Notes: generated from the sequence alone by a model not told the origin. DNA of 22,654 nt from a virus (IMGVR_UViG_3300034279_001376:108776-131429); one strand, 5' to 3'; shown: positions 1,004 through 22,652, numbered from the stretch's first letter. Numbers and translations: made by a program.

Positions 1004-2068
1004 ATGAAAATCTTAATTATTCCGAGCAGCAACGGTAAAAATATTGCTGGTAAATTGTTAGATTTTGAATTTAACACTCTAATCACCCCTCAAATTAAGG
1101 AAAGACTCGAAACTTTTTCACTCGCTGATGTTGAAGAAACAGAAGAATGGAAAGAAAAATTAATTTGGGCACTCACAGATTATTACGACAAAGAAAAAGA
1201 ACACTTAGAGAGTGTAGAAAAATTAGAATCTATTCTTGATACAGATGGATTTTACGAAGAAAACGGTAGTGTGTACCATGAAAGTGGAAAAATTGCTATC
1301 CCTAAAAATATAGCCAGTTTGATTAAAGATGATACCACTGGAAGGTGGGAGAAATTTTGGGGGTTTTTATCCAACAATCCTGACCAATTGGTTAGGGAGA
1401 CTCTTTATAACTTCATCGAGGTAAACAGGCTCACAATTCTCGACAGTGGGCTAATACTAGCAGGTAGAAGAATTTTGAGCAGAGGAAACATTGAATTGAG
1501 CAAATGGGCCAATGAGATGTTTTTGACACGAAAAAAACAGAAAAAAGGCGTAAAAATCCCTGTGTATAATAACGAAGGAGTTTACAACTTAAAAGAAGGA
1601 AAACTTGTTGGAATATTGGATGAATTAATCCACAGTATTACTTACACAGATAACCACACTAAAACTTTGGACTACAAACTGGGTGTAGAAAACCGTATGG
1701 ACAGGTCTAAAGTAAATTCAAATCCCAATAGCAGTTGTGGAGCAGGGTTTCACAGTGCAGGACCTAAATTTTGCACAAGTGGGTTTGGAGACACTCCTTG
1801 TTTAATCACAATTAACCCTGCTGACGTATGTTGTGTGCCTTATTCCAATGACATTATGCGTAGTGCTGCATTTACTATTGTGGCAATTCTAACCAAGGAC
1901 TTGGAACACATTGATGACCTAGAAATCCATGCTATTTTAAAGCAAGAAACTACTGATGTCCAAAATGAAGTGGAAGATGTAAAAACAGATCTTTACGTGA
2001 CTCCTAAACCTACTCTTAATAATTACTCTCAAACCATCAAAAATATCTTAAATGCAAGCAGAGGCTAA
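1004..2068 (+). CDS. rIIB: rIIB-like protein
   Basis: rIIB-type motifs in order: FWGFLSNNP..RETLYNFIE, TILDSGLILA, YTDNH, MDRSKVNSNPNSSCGAGFH, INPADVCCVP..MRS. Confidence 0.85.
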   Translation: MKILIIPSSNGKNIAGKLLDFEFNTLITPQIKERLETFSLADVEETEEWKEKLIWALTDYYDKEKEHLESVEKLESILDTDGFYEENGSVYHESGKIAIPKNIASLIKDDTTGRWEKFWGFLSNNPDQLVRETLYNFIEVNRLTILDSGLILAGRRILSRGNIELSKWANEMFLTRKKQKKGVKIPVYNNEGVYNLKEGKLVGILDELIHSITYTDNHTKTLDYKLGVENRMDRSKVNSNPNSSCGAGFHSAGPKFCTSGFGDTPCLITINPADVCCVPYSNDIMRSAAFTIVAILTKDLEHIDDLEIHAILKQETTDVQNEVEDVKTDLYVTPKPTLNNYSQTIKNILNASRG

Positions 2069-2827: not shown

Positions 2828-3105
2828 TGACAAACTTACAAAAAGAAGCAATAGAGGCTGCTGAAAAATTGAATACTAAGTTAAGCAAAGACACTCATAA
2901 GTTTGTGGTTTTTATATCAAATCAGAGTGCTGGCATTGCCCTTAATATTCATTGGGAAGAATCTCAAATACAAATCTCAATGTATGATAGTACTTTTGAT
3001 GACAGAATTTTTTATCCAAAGTTAAATAGAGAAGAAAAACTCACGGCTTTATTAAAAAGAAAATTCCGTGAGATCAAAAAAGATTTAAACAAAATAAAAA
3101 TATGA
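2827..3105 (+). CDS. Hypothetical protein
   Basis: 92-aa ORF, coupled by overlaps at both ends. Confidence 0.65.
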   Translation: MTNLQKEAIEAAEKLNTKLSKDTHKFVVFISNQSAGIALNIHWEESQIQISMYDSTFDDRIFYPKLNREEKLTALLKRKFREIKKDLNKIKI

Positions 3106-3635
3106 ATTTTAACGAATTTCAAGAAAATTGTCTTGTAACTTTTAGCCCTGACTCAGATTTAAGAATAGAGCAATTGCACTGTATGGTAGGTGTGACTTCT
3201 GAGATGGAAGAATTATGGGCAGCCATAGAGAAAAATGACACAGTAAACATAGCAGAAGAAGTTTGTGACATTTTGTTTTATTTGGTAGTTTATTGTAAAA
3301 AACGCAACATTAGTCTTGATCTAGTAGAAATGGCTTACCAAGAAGTAGATACGGAGGAGATGTTTTCTTTTCACCAATTGAATCTTAATAATTCAGCATG
3401 GCAAGATGCTGCAAAAAAGATTATTTTTTACAACAGGGAAATCTCAGAAGCCTTTGCTTTAATATTACTATTTTCAGAGTTATTCAAATTGGCTGCTCTT
3501 AAAGAAATCAATATTTATGAAGCAATGGATCGTCTTATTAACAAGTTAAAAGCAAGATATGCAGGAAAGTTTGACCAAGCAAGAGCCAATAACAGGAACC
3601 TCGATATTGAGCGAGCAATTCTTGAGGGAGAATGA
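3102..3635 (+). CDS. mazG: MazG-like nucleoside triphosphate pyrophosphohydrolase
   Basis: MNFNEFQ start, GVTSEMEEL and EEVCDILFY (ExxE..EExxD acidic motif), and NKLKARY..F C-terminal motif typical of phage MazG. Confidence 0.85.
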   Translation: MNFNEFQENCLVTFSPDSDLRIEQLHCMVGVTSEMEELWAAIEKNDTVNIAEEVCDILFYLVVYCKKRNISLDLVEMAYQEVDTEEMFSFHQLNLNNSAWQDAAKKIIFYNREISEAFALILLFSELFKLAALKEINIYEAMDRLINKLKARYAGKFDQARANNRNLDIERAILEGE

Positions 3636-5396: not shown

Positions 5397-5615
5397 ATGG
5401 AACCACAAATCTTAATTATAGTAAAAGATAATAAATACTTTGCTTCTTATGGAACTCAACAGATAGAAGTAGTTGTAGTTGATCTTGATTATGTGTCAGA
5501 AGAATCAATTCTGGAAAATGTAGTAACAGAAAATTGTAGCATACTTCCTAGTACTATGGAAGATGCTATTAATCTACTTTCAACAGGATCTGACATTAGC
5601 GAACTTAACAAATGA
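5397..5615 (+). CDS. Hypothetical protein
   Basis: 72-aa acidic ORF with ATGA overlap to the next gene. Confidence 0.65.
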   Translation: MEPQILIIVKDNKYFASYGTQQIEVVVVDLDYVSEESILENVVTENCSILPSTMEDAINLLSTGSDISELNK

Positions 5616-6232
5616 ACAAATTAAAACCTTGCACTATGTGCAAAAAAGATTCTGTTATATTCAAAAACAGAACAGTAGAAGGTGTCAGACTTTCTCTTTG
5701 TGTTACTTGTAACTCTAAAATAGAATCAACTATCAAGAGAGATAAAGTAGTCAAGGTTAAGGAGAAAAGAAAAGTAGCAAGAGACACCAAGAAATTGAGC
5801 CGTAAAAACATGCTCACATTGCTCCAGAAACTCGCTAGGGTGCTAGATGGAGATAAGTGCTGTACTTGTGACAAGGTGTTCACTGAGAGCAATATTGCAC
5901 ATGGAGGGCATGGTGTGAAAGCCCAGAAAAATATGTTTACTGCTTTTCTTCTCCAGAATATCCATGCTCAATGTGCTTCTTGTAACATTTTTTTGGATGG
6001 AAGCCAGTACAATTATGGAAATTTTGTCAATAAGACTTACGGGCATGGCACGTTTGAAAAAATTCAACACTTATCCAACAAAGTTCAGAAAATCCCCCTC
6101 ACTAAAATTCAAGAATTACGCACTAAAGCAGAAGAATACATTCTCCTAGGGGAAGGTAAAACTTTTGATGAAAAGTGGAAACTAAGGCTTGAATTTATCA
6201 AATGGCAAGAAAAAGAATGGGCTACCTTTTAA
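5612..6232 (+). CDS. ninG: NinG/Rap-like HNH recombination endonuclease with an extra N-terminal zinc finger
   Basis: DGDKCCTC..GGH..NIHAQCASCNIFLDG...Y is the NinG pattern; N-terminal CTMC..CVTC. Confidence 0.85.
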   Translation: MNKLKPCTMCKKDSVIFKNRTVEGVRLSLCVTCNSKIESTIKRDKVVKVKEKRKVARDTKKLSRKNMLTLLQKLARVLDGDKCCTCDKVFTESNIAHGGHGVKAQKNMFTAFLLQNIHAQCASCNIFLDGSQYNYGNFVNKTYGHGTFEKIQHLSNKVQKIPLTKIQELRTKAEEYILLGEGKTFDEKWKLRLEFIKWQEKEWATF

Positions 6233-9066: not shown

Positions 9067-9723
9067 ATGCAAGGTATATACTGTATTAAAAACACTATTA
9101 ATGGAAAAATCTATGTAGGTTCTTCTGTAAATATTAAGAAAAAATTTCGGAACCATTTACTAAGTCTTAGAAAAAACCAGCATCCAAACTTTAAATTACA
9201 AAGTTCTTTCAATAAACACAAAGAAGAAAGTTTTATTTTTTACGTTTTAGAAGATGTACTAGAAAAAGAAAATTTAATTGCTAGAGAACAATTCCACATA
9301 GATACATTAGCCCCAGTTTACAATATTTGTTTGCTAGCAGACTCTTCTTTAGGAGTTAAAAGAACTGAAAAAACAATAGAAAAAGTACGCCAAGCAAATC
9401 TAGGTTTGAAACATCCAGAATGGAGAAATAAGATTAAAAGCATTGCTCAAGGTGGAGAAAATCACTGGACAAAGAAAAAAAATTTTTCAGAAGAAGCAAA
9501 ACAAAAAATGAGCACAACTCATAAAAAACTTTATGAAAACGGGTACGTAAACCCAACCAAAAAATCTATTTTGCAATACGATTTAGAAATGAACTTATTA
9601 AATGAATGGGAAAGTGGAGCGGCTGCAAGTAGAGGAACAGGATTAAGTACTTCTACTATATGCCAGTGTTTATCACAAAGATCAAAAACATCGGGTGGGT
9701 TTATCTGGAAATACAAAATTTAA
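9067..9723 (+). CDS. Free-standing GIY-YIG homing endonuclease with NUMOD3- and NUMOD1-like DNA-binding modules
   Basis: GIYCIKNTINGKIYVGSS, LIAREQ..ID..YNI, SSLGVKRTEKT..KH (NUMOD3-like), ILQYDLEMNLLNEWES..GGFIWKY (NUMOD1-like). Confidence 0.92.
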   Translation: MQGIYCIKNTINGKIYVGSSVNIKKKFRNHLLSLRKNQHPNFKLQSSFNKHKEESFIFYVLEDVLEKENLIAREQFHIDTLAPVYNICLLADSSLGVKRTEKTIEKVRQANLGLKHPEWRNKIKSIAQGGENHWTKKKNFSEEAKQKMSTTHKKLYENGYVNPTKKSILQYDLEMNLLNEWESGAAASRGTGLSTSTICQCLSQRSKTSGGFIWKYKI

Positions 9724-19520: not shown

Positions 19521-19558
19521 AAAAGAAAGGGGGTGTCTTATACAGGCACTCCCTTTCT
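19519..19558 (-). terminator. Intrinsic terminator between the convergent arms (possibly bidirectional)
   Basis: 15-bp stem AGAAAGGGGGTGTCT-TATAC-AGGCACTCCCTTTCT (19524-19558); the A-run at 19519-19524 gives a U-tract on the - strand. Confidence 0.85.
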
Positions 19559-19589: not shown

Positions 19590-19964
19590 TTACGCATCAG
19601 GATTTAATACTGGGTCTGTTGGTTTTAAACGTGCCTCACGTACTTTACGCAAAGTCACAGCCAACTGACCAGCCAATTTAACAAACTCAAGTGTGAGTTC
19701 TTCTGCAAGGTCATTACGAAGTTCTAGTTCACTCTGGATGAGTGCTGAAACTTCTGCAACTTCTGCTGCGGAAAGATCACCTAGTTCACTAGGAATAAGG
19801 TTTGCATCTTTAATGGCTGCACCTGCTACCTTTAGGGGGGATAGGACAAAGGCTGCATCAAACATGTTTACTTTACCATCTTCCAAGGCAGATGTACCTG
19901 CACTTACAAGCCTACAAGCAAATGTTACCATCTCGCTTGTCTGAATAATACCAAATTTTTCCAT
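19590..19964 (-). CDS. 124-aa helical hypothetical protein at the end of the lysis operon
   Basis: Start chosen at ATG 19964 (MEKFGII..), 20 nt after the metacaspase stop; Ala/Leu/Glu-rich amphipathic helices; EDGKVNMFD motif. Confidence 0.75.
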   Translation of the reverse strand: MEKFGIIQTSEMVTFACRLVSAGTSALEDGKVNMFDAAFVLSPLKVAGAAIKDANLIPSELGDLSAAEVAEVSALIQSELELRNDLAEELTLEFVKLAGQLAVTLRKVREARLKPTDPVLNPDA

Positions 19965-19984: not shown

Positions 19985-20686
19985 TTACAGTACAAAGGTA
20001 CTCCAATCAAACTTAGTACCATAGGATTTAAAGTTAATTTTTTGTTGTGTGACCAATTCAGAGGCTGCTTTGGTCCAACTAAGCAAAGGATGCCCTGTGT
20101 AAGTCTTAAACATAGTCTCCGTAAACAATCCATTTACCTCACCGTCTAAGGCTGGTTGTGACTCAGCAGATGCGTTTATGGAAAGAAAACTACACTTCAA
20201 AATCCTAGATTTAATAGGAATAGGAGCCGGAATAGGTAAAGTGGCTTTAATGGATTTTCTAATTCCTAAAGCATTTCTATGGACTCCACCACTAAAGCAA
20301 CAGTCAAAAATTCCCACAACTTTGATACCTTTTTTGATAGTGGCCAAGTTGTTGTTAAAATTCTTGTCCAAGAAAATCCGATTGTAAAAGCAAAATGCTT
20401 CATCCAATTCATCCTTCTCAGATTTCGAGGTTGAGGGGACTTGAGTTCCATGACCTGAATACATAATGTAAATGGTGTCTCCCTCAACTGCTTTTACTTT
20501 AACCGAGTGTAAACACCCTAGGAAATTTTCAGGAGTTGCTTCTTCGTTCAAAAGGACTTGAAATTCATCCGGTTTTATCAGATTTATCCAAGTGTTTACA
20601 TCATTGATACAACCTCTCAGGGCTCCATCAGTTCCATAATATTCAGGGTCTATTTTGTTCAGACCCATAAGAATTGCGTATTTCAT
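19985..20686 (-). CDS. Metacaspase / caspase-like cysteine peptidase (C14)
   Basis: YAILMGLN, LRGCINDV, EATPENF, YSGHG (His79), ELDEAF, IFDCCFSG (Cys130), and a p10-like ASAESQPALD..GLFT. Confidence 0.92.
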   Translation of the reverse strand: MKYAILMGLNKIDPEYYGTDGALRGCINDVNTWINLIKPDEFQVLLNEEATPENFLGCLHSVKVKAVEGDTIYIMYSGHGTQVPSTSKSEKDELDEAFCFYNRIFLDKNFNNNLATIKKGIKVVGIFDCCFSGGVHRNALGIRKSIKATLPIPAPIPIKSRILKCSFLSINASAESQPALDGEVNGLFTETMFKTYTGHPLLSWTKAASELVTQQKINFKSYGTKFDWSTFVL

Positions 20687-20701: not shown

Positions 20702-21370
20702 TTACATAATTTTGTCCCAATCAAAAATAGGAGACAAGTCAAACTTGTTCAGCCTAAAATCTGTATGAGTTGTGATGCCTTTGAAATTAATGACTTCATT
20801 AGAATATCCTTTAGTGTATCTTACATTAGGGATTGCGTAAAGGGCACAAAGTTTGTTCTTAATCAATTTAAGGCTTACATATTGAGCCTCAGTGTACTTT
20901 GAGAAGTATCTAACATTTACATTGCCAAATCTTTTCCAAGGTTTGCTTTCCTCGTATAAATGTGTGTCAGTCATTTTACAATGTGGTCTTCCTAAGTAAT
21001 TGAAAAGAATATCTCCTTTACGTACTAGAAATCCCCAATTGCTCAGTTCTATTCCTATACTTATACGAGATTGAGCCTCATTACCTCCTAAAGCACCTTT
21101 ACCCAGATGCCACGCCCAAAATCTAGGATGGTGCAGCATGACTATTTTTCCTTGAGGAGAAATAAGAAAAGCAACACTTACTGTGCTAGATAAAAGAGTA
21201 ATAAGATCCCCTTCAAACCCGCCAGCAGTGTGATGAATTACTATTTTGGATTTTCTACCCGCCTCATTAAAGAAGTGCTTAGTGAGTTTATTGTTTGAAT
21301 AAACTTCTATTCCATTGTAATTAGTGAGTGCAAACCCGTAATTTGCGAGGATTACTTCTTCACTTTTCAT
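20702..21370 (-). CDS. Endolysin, N-acetylmuramoyl-L-alanine amidase (Amidase_2)
   Basis: IVIHHTAG, AWHLG, SIGIEL, YTEAQY..L, ITTHTD..KFD zinc-amidase motifs; adjacent to holin-like genes. Confidence 0.92.
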   Translation of the reverse strand: MKSEEVILANYGFALTNYNGIEVYSNNKLTKHFFNEAGRKSKIVIHHTAGGFEGDLITLLSSTVSVAFLISPQGKIVMLHHPRFWAWHLGKGALGGNEAQSRISIGIELSNWGFLVRKGDILFNYLGRPHCKMTDTHLYEESKPWKRFGNVNVRYFSKYTEAQYVSLKLIKNKLCALYAIPNVRYTKGYSNEVINFKGITTHTDFRLNKFDLSPIFDWDKIM

Positions 21371-21621
21371 TTGTTAGATTGATCTATTTCAGGAAACTGG
21401 TACTCGGCTGCTTTTTGAGAAGTCCTTGGTGAAATCCCTGCCACTATACTTCCTAAGATAATAATAATAGTGTTGTCCACACTTTGATTGATGTTAATTA
21501 CGTCAGTGCTAAACAAAAGTAAAGTCCCACAAATTAATGTTTGAACTACCACATAAGTAATAGGGTTGCTTATCTTGAGTTTGTCAAGATAAAAAGCAAG
21601 AAATATTTGCACATTTTCCAT
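21367..21621 (-). CDS. Holin-like small membrane protein (2 TM)
   Basis: 84 aa, two hydrophobic segments and a hydrophilic C-tail; ATGA overlap with the amidase. Confidence 0.6.
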   Translation of the reverse strand: MENVQIFLAFYLDKLKISNPITYVVVQTLICGTLLLFSTDVININQSVDNTIIIILGSIVAGISPRTSQKAAEYQFPEIDQSNK

Positions 21622-21623
21622 AA

Positions 21624-21980
21624 TTATTTTTCTTTATTGTTGTTGTTACTTTTTGCAAAGGTATCTAAAATCTCAGAAACAATCTTGTTAAGTGTTTCTT
21701 TCCAAGGAAACTCTAAAGCAAGCCTCATTATAGTCATTCCCATTAAACCGCATATAAATGAAACAAAGGAAATGTTAAGAAAAGAAAAATGCTCTACAAT
21801 TTCAGGGCTTGCATACACCGAGAATATCACCCCCATTAAAAATTCTAAGAAATTGGACACAGTTTCTCTTTTTAAATACACATGCGAGTATATAAAATAT
21901 ACTGCACCTCCCATTATAGCATCTTTATAAGGGACAAGGAAAGACAGGATGCTGTCTATAAATTCAACGATTCTAGTCAT
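21624..21980 (-). CDS. Holin-like membrane protein (about 3 TM)
   Basis: Start ATG 21980 (ATGA overlap with the upstream stop), 118 aa; three hydrophobic segments and a charged C-tail (SNNNNKEK). Confidence 0.65.
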   Translation of the reverse strand: MTRIVEFIDSILSFLVPYKDAIMGGAVYFIYSHVYLKRETVSNFLEFLMGVIFSVYASPEIVEHFSFLNISFVSFICGLMGMTIMRLALEFPWKETLNKIVSEILDTFAKSNNNNKEK

Positions 21981-22471
21981 ATAATTATTTTTATGTCGTG
22001 TGGAGCAGGATAAATACCTCCAAACCAAGGTCTTATTTCTCTGCAAAAATTGGTTGTTTTACCATCTGCAAAGGTATAATTATTTTTACTACTAAATAAA
22101 GCCTTATTTCCTTCAAAGTTAATTTTTGCTTGTCCCCGACACATTAATTTATTATTTTCTTTAATTAAAGGCAAAGATTGGAGCAACCCAGATAAATGAT
22201 CTCCTTTTGGGTTGTTTACATACCAGTAGATTCCTATTTTATCTGTGTCCCAAGACCAACCTATCATGTAAGACCAGCCTTTGTTTGCAGGAGTACCGGG
22301 TGAAAAATCTACCCCACCTAGTTTATTAATACCTGCATAACCATTTTTGTGATAATATTCCGCACTTGAATCAAACTCAAAGTTTATTACTATTTCTGGT
22401 TTTCTAAACCAAACCTTAGGTAAATAAAGATTACAGGCATGATTTCCCTTTTTATGAATTATAGTTCTCAT
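21977..22471 (-). CDS. Beta-rich conserved hypothetical protein
   Basis: INKLGG..GWSW..IYWYVN..PWFGG..PAPHDIKI resembles a Bacteroidota family with NKL.G..GWR..YFGG..APHD. Confidence 0.7.
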   Translation of the reverse strand: MRTIIHKKGNHACNLYLPKVWFRKPEIVINFEFDSSAEYYHKNGYAGINKLGGVDFSPGTPANKGWSYMIGWSWDTDKIGIYWYVNNPKGDHLSGLLQSLPLIKENNKLMCRGQAKINFEGNKALFSSKNNYTFADGKTTNFCREIRPWFGGIYPAPHDIKIII

Positions 22472-22472
22472 A

Positions 22473-22652
22473 TTATTTTCTAAAAATTATTAATACATAT
22501 CCATTTCCTCCATTACCTCCTCTACCAGAATTAAATCCATTCAAAGAAGCAGCACCACCTCCGCCACCTCCACCTCTAAGAGCATCACCACCTCTGCCAG
22601 CAGTTGTGGCAGAAGAACTTCCACCACCAGCACCAGCACCAGCGTAGTAAGC
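22473..22652 (-). CDS. C-terminal end of a glycine-rich tail/fiber-type protein (5'-truncated by the window)
   Basis: AYYAGAGAGGGSSSATTAGRGGDALRGGGGGGGAASLNGFNSGRGGNGGNGYVLIIFRK*, the typical GG..GG.G.V.I terminus of phage Gly-rich tail domains. Confidence 0.8.
   Translation of the reverse strand, partial: AYYAGAGAGGGSSSATTAGRGGDALRGGGGGGGAASLNGFNSGRGGNGGNGYVLIIFRK

Follow-up and report, generated by a model that had tools for sequence, protein, structure and literature searches.

A metacaspase-like protease gene in the terminal lysis operon of a large phage, and its putative part in lysis

What might a caspase-type protease be doing among the lysis genes of a phage? The question is raised by a stretch of viral DNA of 22,654 nucleotides (IMGVR_UViG_3300034279_001376:108776-131429; the window, as this whole stretch is called below), in which an open reading frame (ORF) at positions 19985-20686 of the minus strand encodes a protein of 233 amino acids (aa) of the Peptidase_C14 family, referred to here as C14, directly downstream of an endolysin gene. 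Textbook phage lysis employs a holin, an endolysin and, in Gram-negative hosts, spanins, and we know of no protease with an accepted role in the lysis of tailed phages; the known direction is that bacteria use caspase-like proteases against phages. An earlier reading made from the sequence alone (the sequence-only reading) had described the gene as an intact metacaspase within a lysis cassette and proposed three roles for it, namely protease-gated lysis, late counter-defence and virion maturation. The analysis reported here identifies C14 as a fixed component of the terminal lysis operon in a small lineage of large, putatively crAss-like phages, and its most probable part, tentatively put, is an accessory proteolytic step at lysis.

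The plus-strand reading of the same coordinates is full of stop codons, and it is the minus strand that carries the gene. Its product matches the Pfam family Peptidase_C14 over residues 3-212 (E 1.9e-14; 54.3 bits, with a gathering cut-off of 21.4) and contains the motifs SGHG at 77-80 (His79), ELDE at 93-96 and DCCFSG at 128-133 (Cys130), with His79 and Cys130 invariant in both of the alignments used, of 16 and 62 sequences. The AlphaFold2 (AF2) model built from the 62-sequence alignment has a predicted local distance difference test score (pLDDT) of 91.5 and a predicted template modelling score (pTM) of 0.88, falls below a pLDDT of 50 only at residues 139-147, and shows a fold spanning residues 1-233. 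Because this confident fold begins with strand 1 at residue 2, the protein has no prodomain, signal peptide, sensor or extra domain. The p10-like half is present at residues 166-233, where Gln177 and Asp181 are shared by all sequences of the smaller alignment and Asp181 is conserved at 90% or more among the 62 sequences of the larger, and it is joined to the p20-like half by a disordered, Arg/Lys-rich linker of ~29 residues (137-165) that could serve as a predicted self-cleavage site. Seven clusters of close homologues, clustered at 90% identity, together with ratios of nonsynonymous to synonymous substitution (dN/dS) of 0.15-0.28, put the ORF, as judged from its homologues, beyond chance. The sequence-only reading was therefore sound in its account of the protein, which had listed the His79/Cys130 dyad, both p20- and p10-like parts and the lack of prodomain, sensor or signal peptide.

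As to the class of enzyme, a family-profile search placed PDB 3BIJ, the GSU0716 protein of Geobacter, first (E 3.7e-88), followed by Yca1, Candida MCA-I, AtMC4, AtMC9 and TbMCA2, and phmmer with the single C14 sequence gave the same ranking (3BIJ, E 9e-18). Foldseek likewise returned 3bij as the top match (E 5e-17, template modelling (TM) score 0.79), then metacaspases, MALT1 and caspases, in agreement with the AlphaFold DB clusters, and its probability of 1.00 for 3bij, TbMCA2, AtMC9, Yca1, MALT1 and caspase-6 alike places the protein in the caspase-hemoglobinase fold. Within this fold, C14 has neither the Pro-rich or zinc-finger N-terminal prodomain of type I metacaspases nor the p20-p10 linker of ~90-150 aa of type II, and its p10-like half separates it from orthocaspases in the strict sense, which consist of p20 without p10. 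It shares with the GSU0716-like group its closest match to 3BIJ and its stand-alone form; the group measures about 250-290 aa, and C14 is shorter, having lost most of the inter-domain insert (~35 residues between the halves, relative to bacterial relatives of 270 aa). On these comparisons of sequence and predicted structure, C14 is best classified as a minimal GSU0716-type metacaspase.

The S1 pocket of TbMCA2 is made up of Cys92, Asp95, Ser156 and Asp211, and C14 carries Cys26, Asp29, Ser77 and Asp128 at the equivalent positions, as mapped by motif and not by superposition (PMC4357240). All four residues are present throughout the 16 aligned sequences; among the 62, Asp29, Ser77 and Asp128 are conserved at 90% or more and Cys26 at below 90%. 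Since equivalents of the TbMCA2 S1 residues are present, a predicted specificity for Arg/Lys is a reasonable expectation. The sequence-only reading had expected the same from the acidic residues of the ELDE and D-C-C motifs, and was right in one half of the argument: Asp128 falls at an S1 position, whereas ELDE more likely belongs to the calcium-site loop. Many metacaspases are restrained by a calcium site of four aspartates, which in TbMCA2 are Asp173, 189, 190 and 220. Judged by spacing only, C14 keeps Asp92/Asp95 and Asp107 at these positions and has Arg137 near the fourth. All seven proteins of the phage lineage (7/7) have Asp107 followed by Lys or Arg at residue 108 (codons at window 20363-20368), in contrast to the Asp-Asp of every other aligned family member, and a built-in positive charge at residue 108 might replace the calcium-site metal.

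A search of 5.8 billion proteins yielded seven close C14 clusters, with 44-100% identity and lengths of 230-238 aa, all of them metagenomic, and in the tree this phage lineage is monophyletic (support 99) and sits on a long stem inside the GSU0716-like group. Wherever a relative has enough context (6/6, at 44-75% C14 identity), an Amidase_2 gene lies directly upstream of C14; the order Amidase_2, C14, 124-aa gene of the window recurs in L002, L003, L004-7, L151 and L152, and homologues of both membrane proteins of the operon are present where the contig reaches that far (L002, L003, L004-7). The amidases are 61-82% identical among the relatives. Pairwise dN/dS, given above for C14, ranges from 0.07 to 0.16 in the amidase and from 0.16 to 0.42 in the 124-aa gene. 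Because dN/dS is low and synteny holds in every relative with context, C14 is a functional gene under purifying selection that has been kept at the same position over a long divergence. All relatives with the C14-amidase pair belong to one lineage and therefore amount to one evolutionary observation. At three IMG/VR loci with more distant amidases (30-32% identity), both C14 and the 124-aa gene are missing from the neighbourhood, which is little informative.

The operon (Table 1) follows tail-fibre-like genes as a tightly coupled run. In order from the 164-aa gene to the 124-aa gene, its junctions are an ATGA overlap, 2 nt, an ATGA overlap, 15 nt and 20 nt, the 15 nt being the spacing between amidase and C14 that had been read earlier. 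The order of holin-like protein, protein with two transmembrane segments, amidase, C14, hypothetical protein and terminator, also proposed from the sequence alone, was confirmed down to the hairpin, which a simple promoter and terminator scan, with counts at chance level, had missed. Of the components of a canonical Gram-negative lysis cassette, the endolysin is present, and the holin is a candidate, suggested by weak PHROG matches (E 1.2e-4) and membrane topology. The 118-aa holin-like protein has two to three hydrophobic segments, and we place its start at the ATG at 21980; an alternative TTG start (140 aa) would overlap the upstream gene by 70 nt. The 84-aa protein is a candidate second holin or antiholin. 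A simple pattern scan, which does not prove absence, found no ORF with a lipobox in or near the cassette, so that no spanin candidate is visible. We infer late co-expression of C14 with the holins and the amidase, which has no signal peptide.

Two of the neighbours of C14 have features that bear on its possible substrates. In the amidase, the N-terminal 40 residues are highly conserved, as is a basic cluster, R/K-K-S-K, just before the zinc-binding His-His. The C-terminus of the 124-aa protein has a conserved cluster, L-R-K-x-R/K-E-x-R, and then a tail that varies; the protein matches no Pfam, PHROG or PADLOC family, a word search returned near-identical homologues only, and an Atlas feature search returned unnamed viral clusters only. 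An Atlas shape search with its moderately confident AF2 model gave nothing above a TM score of 0.42. A homologue with 30% identity occurs in another phage (L144:3536-4878), which has no C14 or recognisable endolysin, and is flanked there by two small membrane proteins and a lipoprotein (LLGC lipobox). Because it occurs there without C14 and beside membrane proteins and a lipoprotein, the 124-aa family is probably a lysis-region protein in its own right and not an obligate partner of the protease.

The reading that we favour, with rather less than even confidence, is that C14 is a putative lysis-accessory protease, contributing a proteolytic step at lysis. C14 would be made late, alongside the holins and the amidase, and because it, like the amidase, has no export signal, the holin lesion would be its only route to the envelope. 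The step could then take one of two forms: (i) C14 would cut the envelope proteins by which the outer membrane is anchored to the wall, the cassette having no recognisable spanin, or (ii) it would process one of the lysis proteins, that is, the holin, the antiholin, the amidase or the 124-aa protein. The case is strengthened by related C14 genes that lie beside two other endolysin families, Phage_lysozyme in another virus and M15_4 in bacteria.

Viral relatives were collected by an alignment-based scan of IMG/VR, which gave 240 C14-encoding stretches, many of them from giant viruses, of which 80 loci were kept; a single-protein C14 search of viral contigs had returned nothing, and the contigs of P0175 and P0163 are too short to inform on context. 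The clearest parallel is a record of 41 kb with a GC content of 58% (G001, L013:3736-6780), in which two lipoproteins, a Phage_lysozyme, a small SNase-like gene and a 273-aa C14 form a run that begins after a tail-fibre-like gene and has C14 as the last gene of the late block before a convergent block. This layout closely parallels that of the window, with a different endolysin family. P0121, the nearest outgroup in a representative search (40% identity), comes from a Mu-like phage, in which a transmembrane/coiled-coil protein, a lipoprotein (LAGC lipobox), a secreted DUF1353 protein, C14 and the small and large terminase genes follow one another; in Mu-like phages, the lysis genes are located just before the terminase genes. 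In the tree, L013 and P0121 group with the phage lineage, with weak support (85). The gene for the secreted DUF1353 protein (phrog_1158, annotated 'tail assembly chaperone') immediately precedes C14 in the Mu-like phage, and in another phage it stands two genes ahead of C14 (L145:5462-6759, L023:4950-6780); it may be a second recurrent neighbour of C14.

Among cellular proteins, the closest homologues of C14 are those of 270 aa from Chitinophagaceae (Niabella, Ferruginibacter), with 33-34% identity. At 11 loci or more in this family, C14 comes immediately after a 195-aa Peptidase_M15_4 that strongly resembles phage endolysins (phrog_17001, E 5e-48), and the pair is flanked by EAD11-TIR, nSTAND1 and EAD11, or by a DUF7379-lipase-CHAT-TPR-S protein of 1,000-1,650 aa (L008:7360-8813; L093-L104). 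These flanking genes are components of conflict systems, and the M15_4-C14 pair looks like a suicide-lysis effector module set in conflict islands; effectors that attack peptidoglycan are included in conflict systems centred on nucleoside triphosphatases (Kaur et al. 2020, PMC7159879). Other cellular relatives are found next to nSTAND1-CHAT proteins or to tandem C14 genes; in Firmicutes, the setting is near germination genes. The tie between bacterial caspase-like proteases and defence, stated in the sequence-only reading, is thus seen again in the relatives of this protein. Across the three hydrolase families, the pairing of an endolysin with C14 looks like repeated assembly, judging by the tree (see below), whose deep branches are poorly supported.

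Several observations weigh against a role in lysis. In ten phage-like loci the upstream neighbour of C14 is an SNase-like gene, a small terminase, a PDDEXK nuclease, a SIS, a SWIB or another gene, and ten further neighbours include a portal, the DUF1353 protein annotated as a tail chaperone, a peptide deformylase and an exonuclease. When 33 C14-bearing viral records were searched whole, Amidase_2, M15_4, SLT and GH19 were never found near C14, and with five endolysin families, Phage_lysozyme included, a recognised endolysin stood beside it in one record only; this is a weak test of recurrence, because few of the records showed any endolysin and the GH19 control gave no signal. The tree does not place the clade of Chitinophagaceae as the sister group of the phages, so that the endolysin pairings are either separate events or beyond what the tree resolves. 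Recurrence of the linkage to lysis genes, which the sequence-only reading had set as its own test, accordingly came out divided: most other viral C14 genes examined do not lie beside lysis genes, and at least two independent further endolysin-C14 pairings exist. In one relative, moreover, C14 and the 124-aa gene are separated by a 70-aa gene of the Acb2_Tad1_hairpin family (L152:1573-1785); this insertion, which neither the window nor any other relative has, means that the end of the operon accepts counter-defence cargo, and that the adjacency of C14 and amidase may reflect a permissive site and not a shared function. Finally, a cytoplasmic Arg/Lys protease made before lysis needs a restraint, of which none was identified, and the calcium site looks degenerate (Asp107-Lys108, Arg137).

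The same observations feed the strongest alternative, which we consider rather unlikely but a real contender: that C14 is a captured conflict-system caspase, acting as a late counter-defence or host-takeover protease that cuts cytoplasmic host proteins, such as the effectors of abortive infection or sensors that respond to late phage proteins, and that its place beside the lysis genes reflects nothing beyond the permissive site. The conflict-island setting of the cellular relatives (EAD11-TIR/nSTAND1, DUF7379-lipase-CHAT-TPR-S, nSTAND1-CHAT and tandem C14 genes) speaks for it, as do a partial match of C14 to the generic 'caspase' model of PADLOC (E 1e-9), the varied non-lysis contexts of other phage C14 genes, in the manner of accessory genes, and the lack of an export signal, for which action in the cytoplasm is the simplest reading. 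The Acb2/Tad1-hairpin gene, from a family of immune-signal sponges, also points this way by its position directly after C14, although it is found in a single relative. What the alternative does not account for is that C14 lies in the late operon and not in an early accessory block, that its position after the endolysin is kept in 6/6 relatives down to 44% identity, and that related C14 genes pair with two other endolysin families. A gasdermin-type module was rejected, there being no partner gene: neither Pfam, with all six cassette proteins, nor PADLOC, with the amidase and the 124-aa and 164-aa proteins, gave a gasdermin, TIR or sensor partner. Of the three roles offered at the outset, gene context thus lends weak support to protease-gated lysis and to late counter-defence, and none to virion maturation.

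Protease-gated lysis in its narrow form, in which C14 cleaves one cassette product as a switch that triggers or delays lysis, seems quite improbable to us. The target would be the holin or the 84-aa protein acting as antiholin, or else a region of another product: in the amidase, the basic residues that precede the His-His; in the 124-aa protein, its C-terminal tail. The tight coupling of the operon, the two conserved basic clusters described above and the possible self-cleavage of the C14 linker are all consistent with such a switch; yet the N-terminal 40 residues of the amidase are conserved in the manner of a part of the fold and not of a disposable propeptide, the 124-aa family occurs without C14 in another phage, the gene inserted in L152 parts the 124-aa gene from C14, and the endolysin partners differ in the other C14 pairings. 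It is more improbable still that C14 acts in the virion or its assembly, or that it is a passenger gene with a role outside lysis and defence, for instance in releasing nutrients or in proteolysis of a general kind. Phage C14 genes are indeed scattered over many contexts, and the present one comes just after tail-fibre-like genes, but purifying selection and strict synteny do not suit a passenger, and the head and portal genes are far away, at genome position 44-60 kb. The virion-maturation protease was rejected for its wrong fold as well as for that distance; we know of no tailed-phage maturation protease with a caspase fold. The accessory lysis protease, which we continue to prefer, can also be stated in a wider form, as a portable two-enzyme lysis module of endolysin and metacaspase, in which the holin lesion of these phages would release or activate the protease, the protease would replace spanins by cutting the tethers between outer membrane and wall, and the M15_4-C14 pair would be a suicide-lysis effector of the conflict islands of Chitinophagaceae. 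This joint reading we regard as plainly unlikely.

The phage that carries the operon is known from a complete IMG/VR virus record of 131,429 bp with direct terminal repeats of 127 bp, of which the window is the last 22.6 kb. The genome has two opposed gene blocks, with minus-strand genes at ~0-65 kb and plus-strand genes at 65-128 kb, and includes giant ORFs of 1,950-3,176 aa; the minus-strand block wraps over the ends of the record, and its end in the window, with the lysis genes, converges on the end of the plus-strand block. The host is likely a member of Bacteroidota. The portal protein matches the portal family phrog_6547 (E 4e-43) and, by tblastn, shows 22-24% identity to portal regions of the gut phage csAssE-Sib, Cellulophaga phages and a Leptolyngbya phage, while megablast of the lysis cassette against 50,697 phage records gave no match. 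Genome-wide, only one gene looks convincingly like that of a lipoprotein, with a short hydrophobic N-terminus that closes with a Cys; it encodes 114 aa and is located in the early/middle arm (genome position 84599-84943, plus strand), outside the window and far from the lysis cassette.

Table 1. Features of the window, by position within its 22,654 nucleotides
Feature	Position	Strand	Basis
RIIB-like C-terminal domain protein	1004-2068	+	PHROG
MazG-like pyrophosphatase	3102-3635	+	PHROG
NinG/Rap-like endonuclease	5612-6232	+	PHROG
GIY-YIG homing endonuclease	9067-9723	+	PHROG
Hairpin terminator between convergent late (-) and early/middle (+) blocks	19524-19558		15-nt arms, 87% complementary, 5-nt loop, then minus-strand T-run
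Acidic all-helical 124-aa protein, last gene of the operon	19590-19964	-	ORF; AF2 pLDDT 70.8
Metacaspase-like cysteine protease (Peptidase_C14, GSU0716 type), 233 aa, His79/Cys130	19985-20686	-	Pfam, AF2, Foldseek
Amidase_2 endolysin (N-acetylmuramoyl-L-alanine amidase), 222 aa, no signal peptide	20702-21370	-	PF01510, E 4.3e-10; PHROG amidase/endolysin families
84-aa protein, two transmembrane segments (20-36, 47-63)	21367-21621	-	Topology; no Pfam/PHROG family match
Holin-like membrane protein, 118 aa	21624-21980	-	phrog_2359 holin, E 1.2e-4; phrog_2073 holin, E 0.02 (weak)
Basic 164-aa protein, first of the tightly coupled run after tail-fibre-like genes	21977-22471	-	ORF; no Pfam, PHROG or PADLOC match
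Gly-rich C-terminus of the protein that wraps the terminal repeat, just upstream of the lysis run	22473-22652	-	Weak match to the end of a large PHROG without known function

Reference collections contain hardly any named example of a phage C14: a tblastn search with C14 in the 50,697 phage records (INPHARED) gave one weak match only, in a 485-kb uncultured phage, and the 24 matches in BFVD (E<=0.001), the only named viral proteins with the C14 fold there, all come from giant viruses. Our literature search found no paper describing a metacaspase in the lysis cassette of a tailed phage. To our knowledge, little is understood of how Bacteroidota phages get through the outer membrane, and a caspase-type protease that is conserved, apparently active and part of a lysis operon is a concrete candidate for a proteolytic step at phage release. 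Were counter-defence the true role, a phage-borne caspase would be turned against host immunity, reversing the known direction; under either reading, something new would be added to the biology of a very well-known enzyme family.

The known system closest to C14 is GSU0716 of Geobacter sulfurreducens (PDB 3BIJ), a stand-alone protein without an assigned function, with which it shares a single chain of p20- and p10-like halves, the lack of a prodomain and the motifs YSGHG, D-x-C-x-SG and Q..S.DG; C14 differs from it in being ~40-50 residues shorter, with most of the insert between the halves reduced to the 29-residue linker, in having Phe and not His after the catalytic Cys, and in being phage-encoded within a lysis operon. 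The metacaspases of giant viruses (Nucleocytoviricota) have the same fold but, unlike C14, are longer, lie on a eukaryote-like branch of the tree and belong to viruses of eukaryotic hosts. As for lysis itself, mycobacteriophages use a third enzyme for it, LysB, whose esterase activity frees the outer mycolate layer from the cell wall. LysB and the spanins of Gram-negative hosts offer an analogy for the proposed role of C14, that of an extra cassette component which acts on the outer layer after holin and endolysin; their folds and chemistry are unrelated to those of C14, whose action on the envelope is a proposal by analogy. Type I metacaspases (T. brucei MCA2, yeast Yca1, Candida glabrata MCA-I) share with C14 the fold, the dyad and the S1 equivalents (PMC4357240), whereas C14 is a viral protein of 233 aa with no N-terminal prodomain and with a four-Asp calcium site that, by spacing, looks only partly kept. 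In bacterial gasdermin operons with caspase-like proteases and in the type IV Thoeris caspase-like effector (PMC13243611), a protease of the caspase fold is coupled to a killing or lytic outcome, as it would be here, but the element that carries C14 is a phage, with no gasdermin, TIR or sensor, and its lytic effectors are a holin and an amidase.

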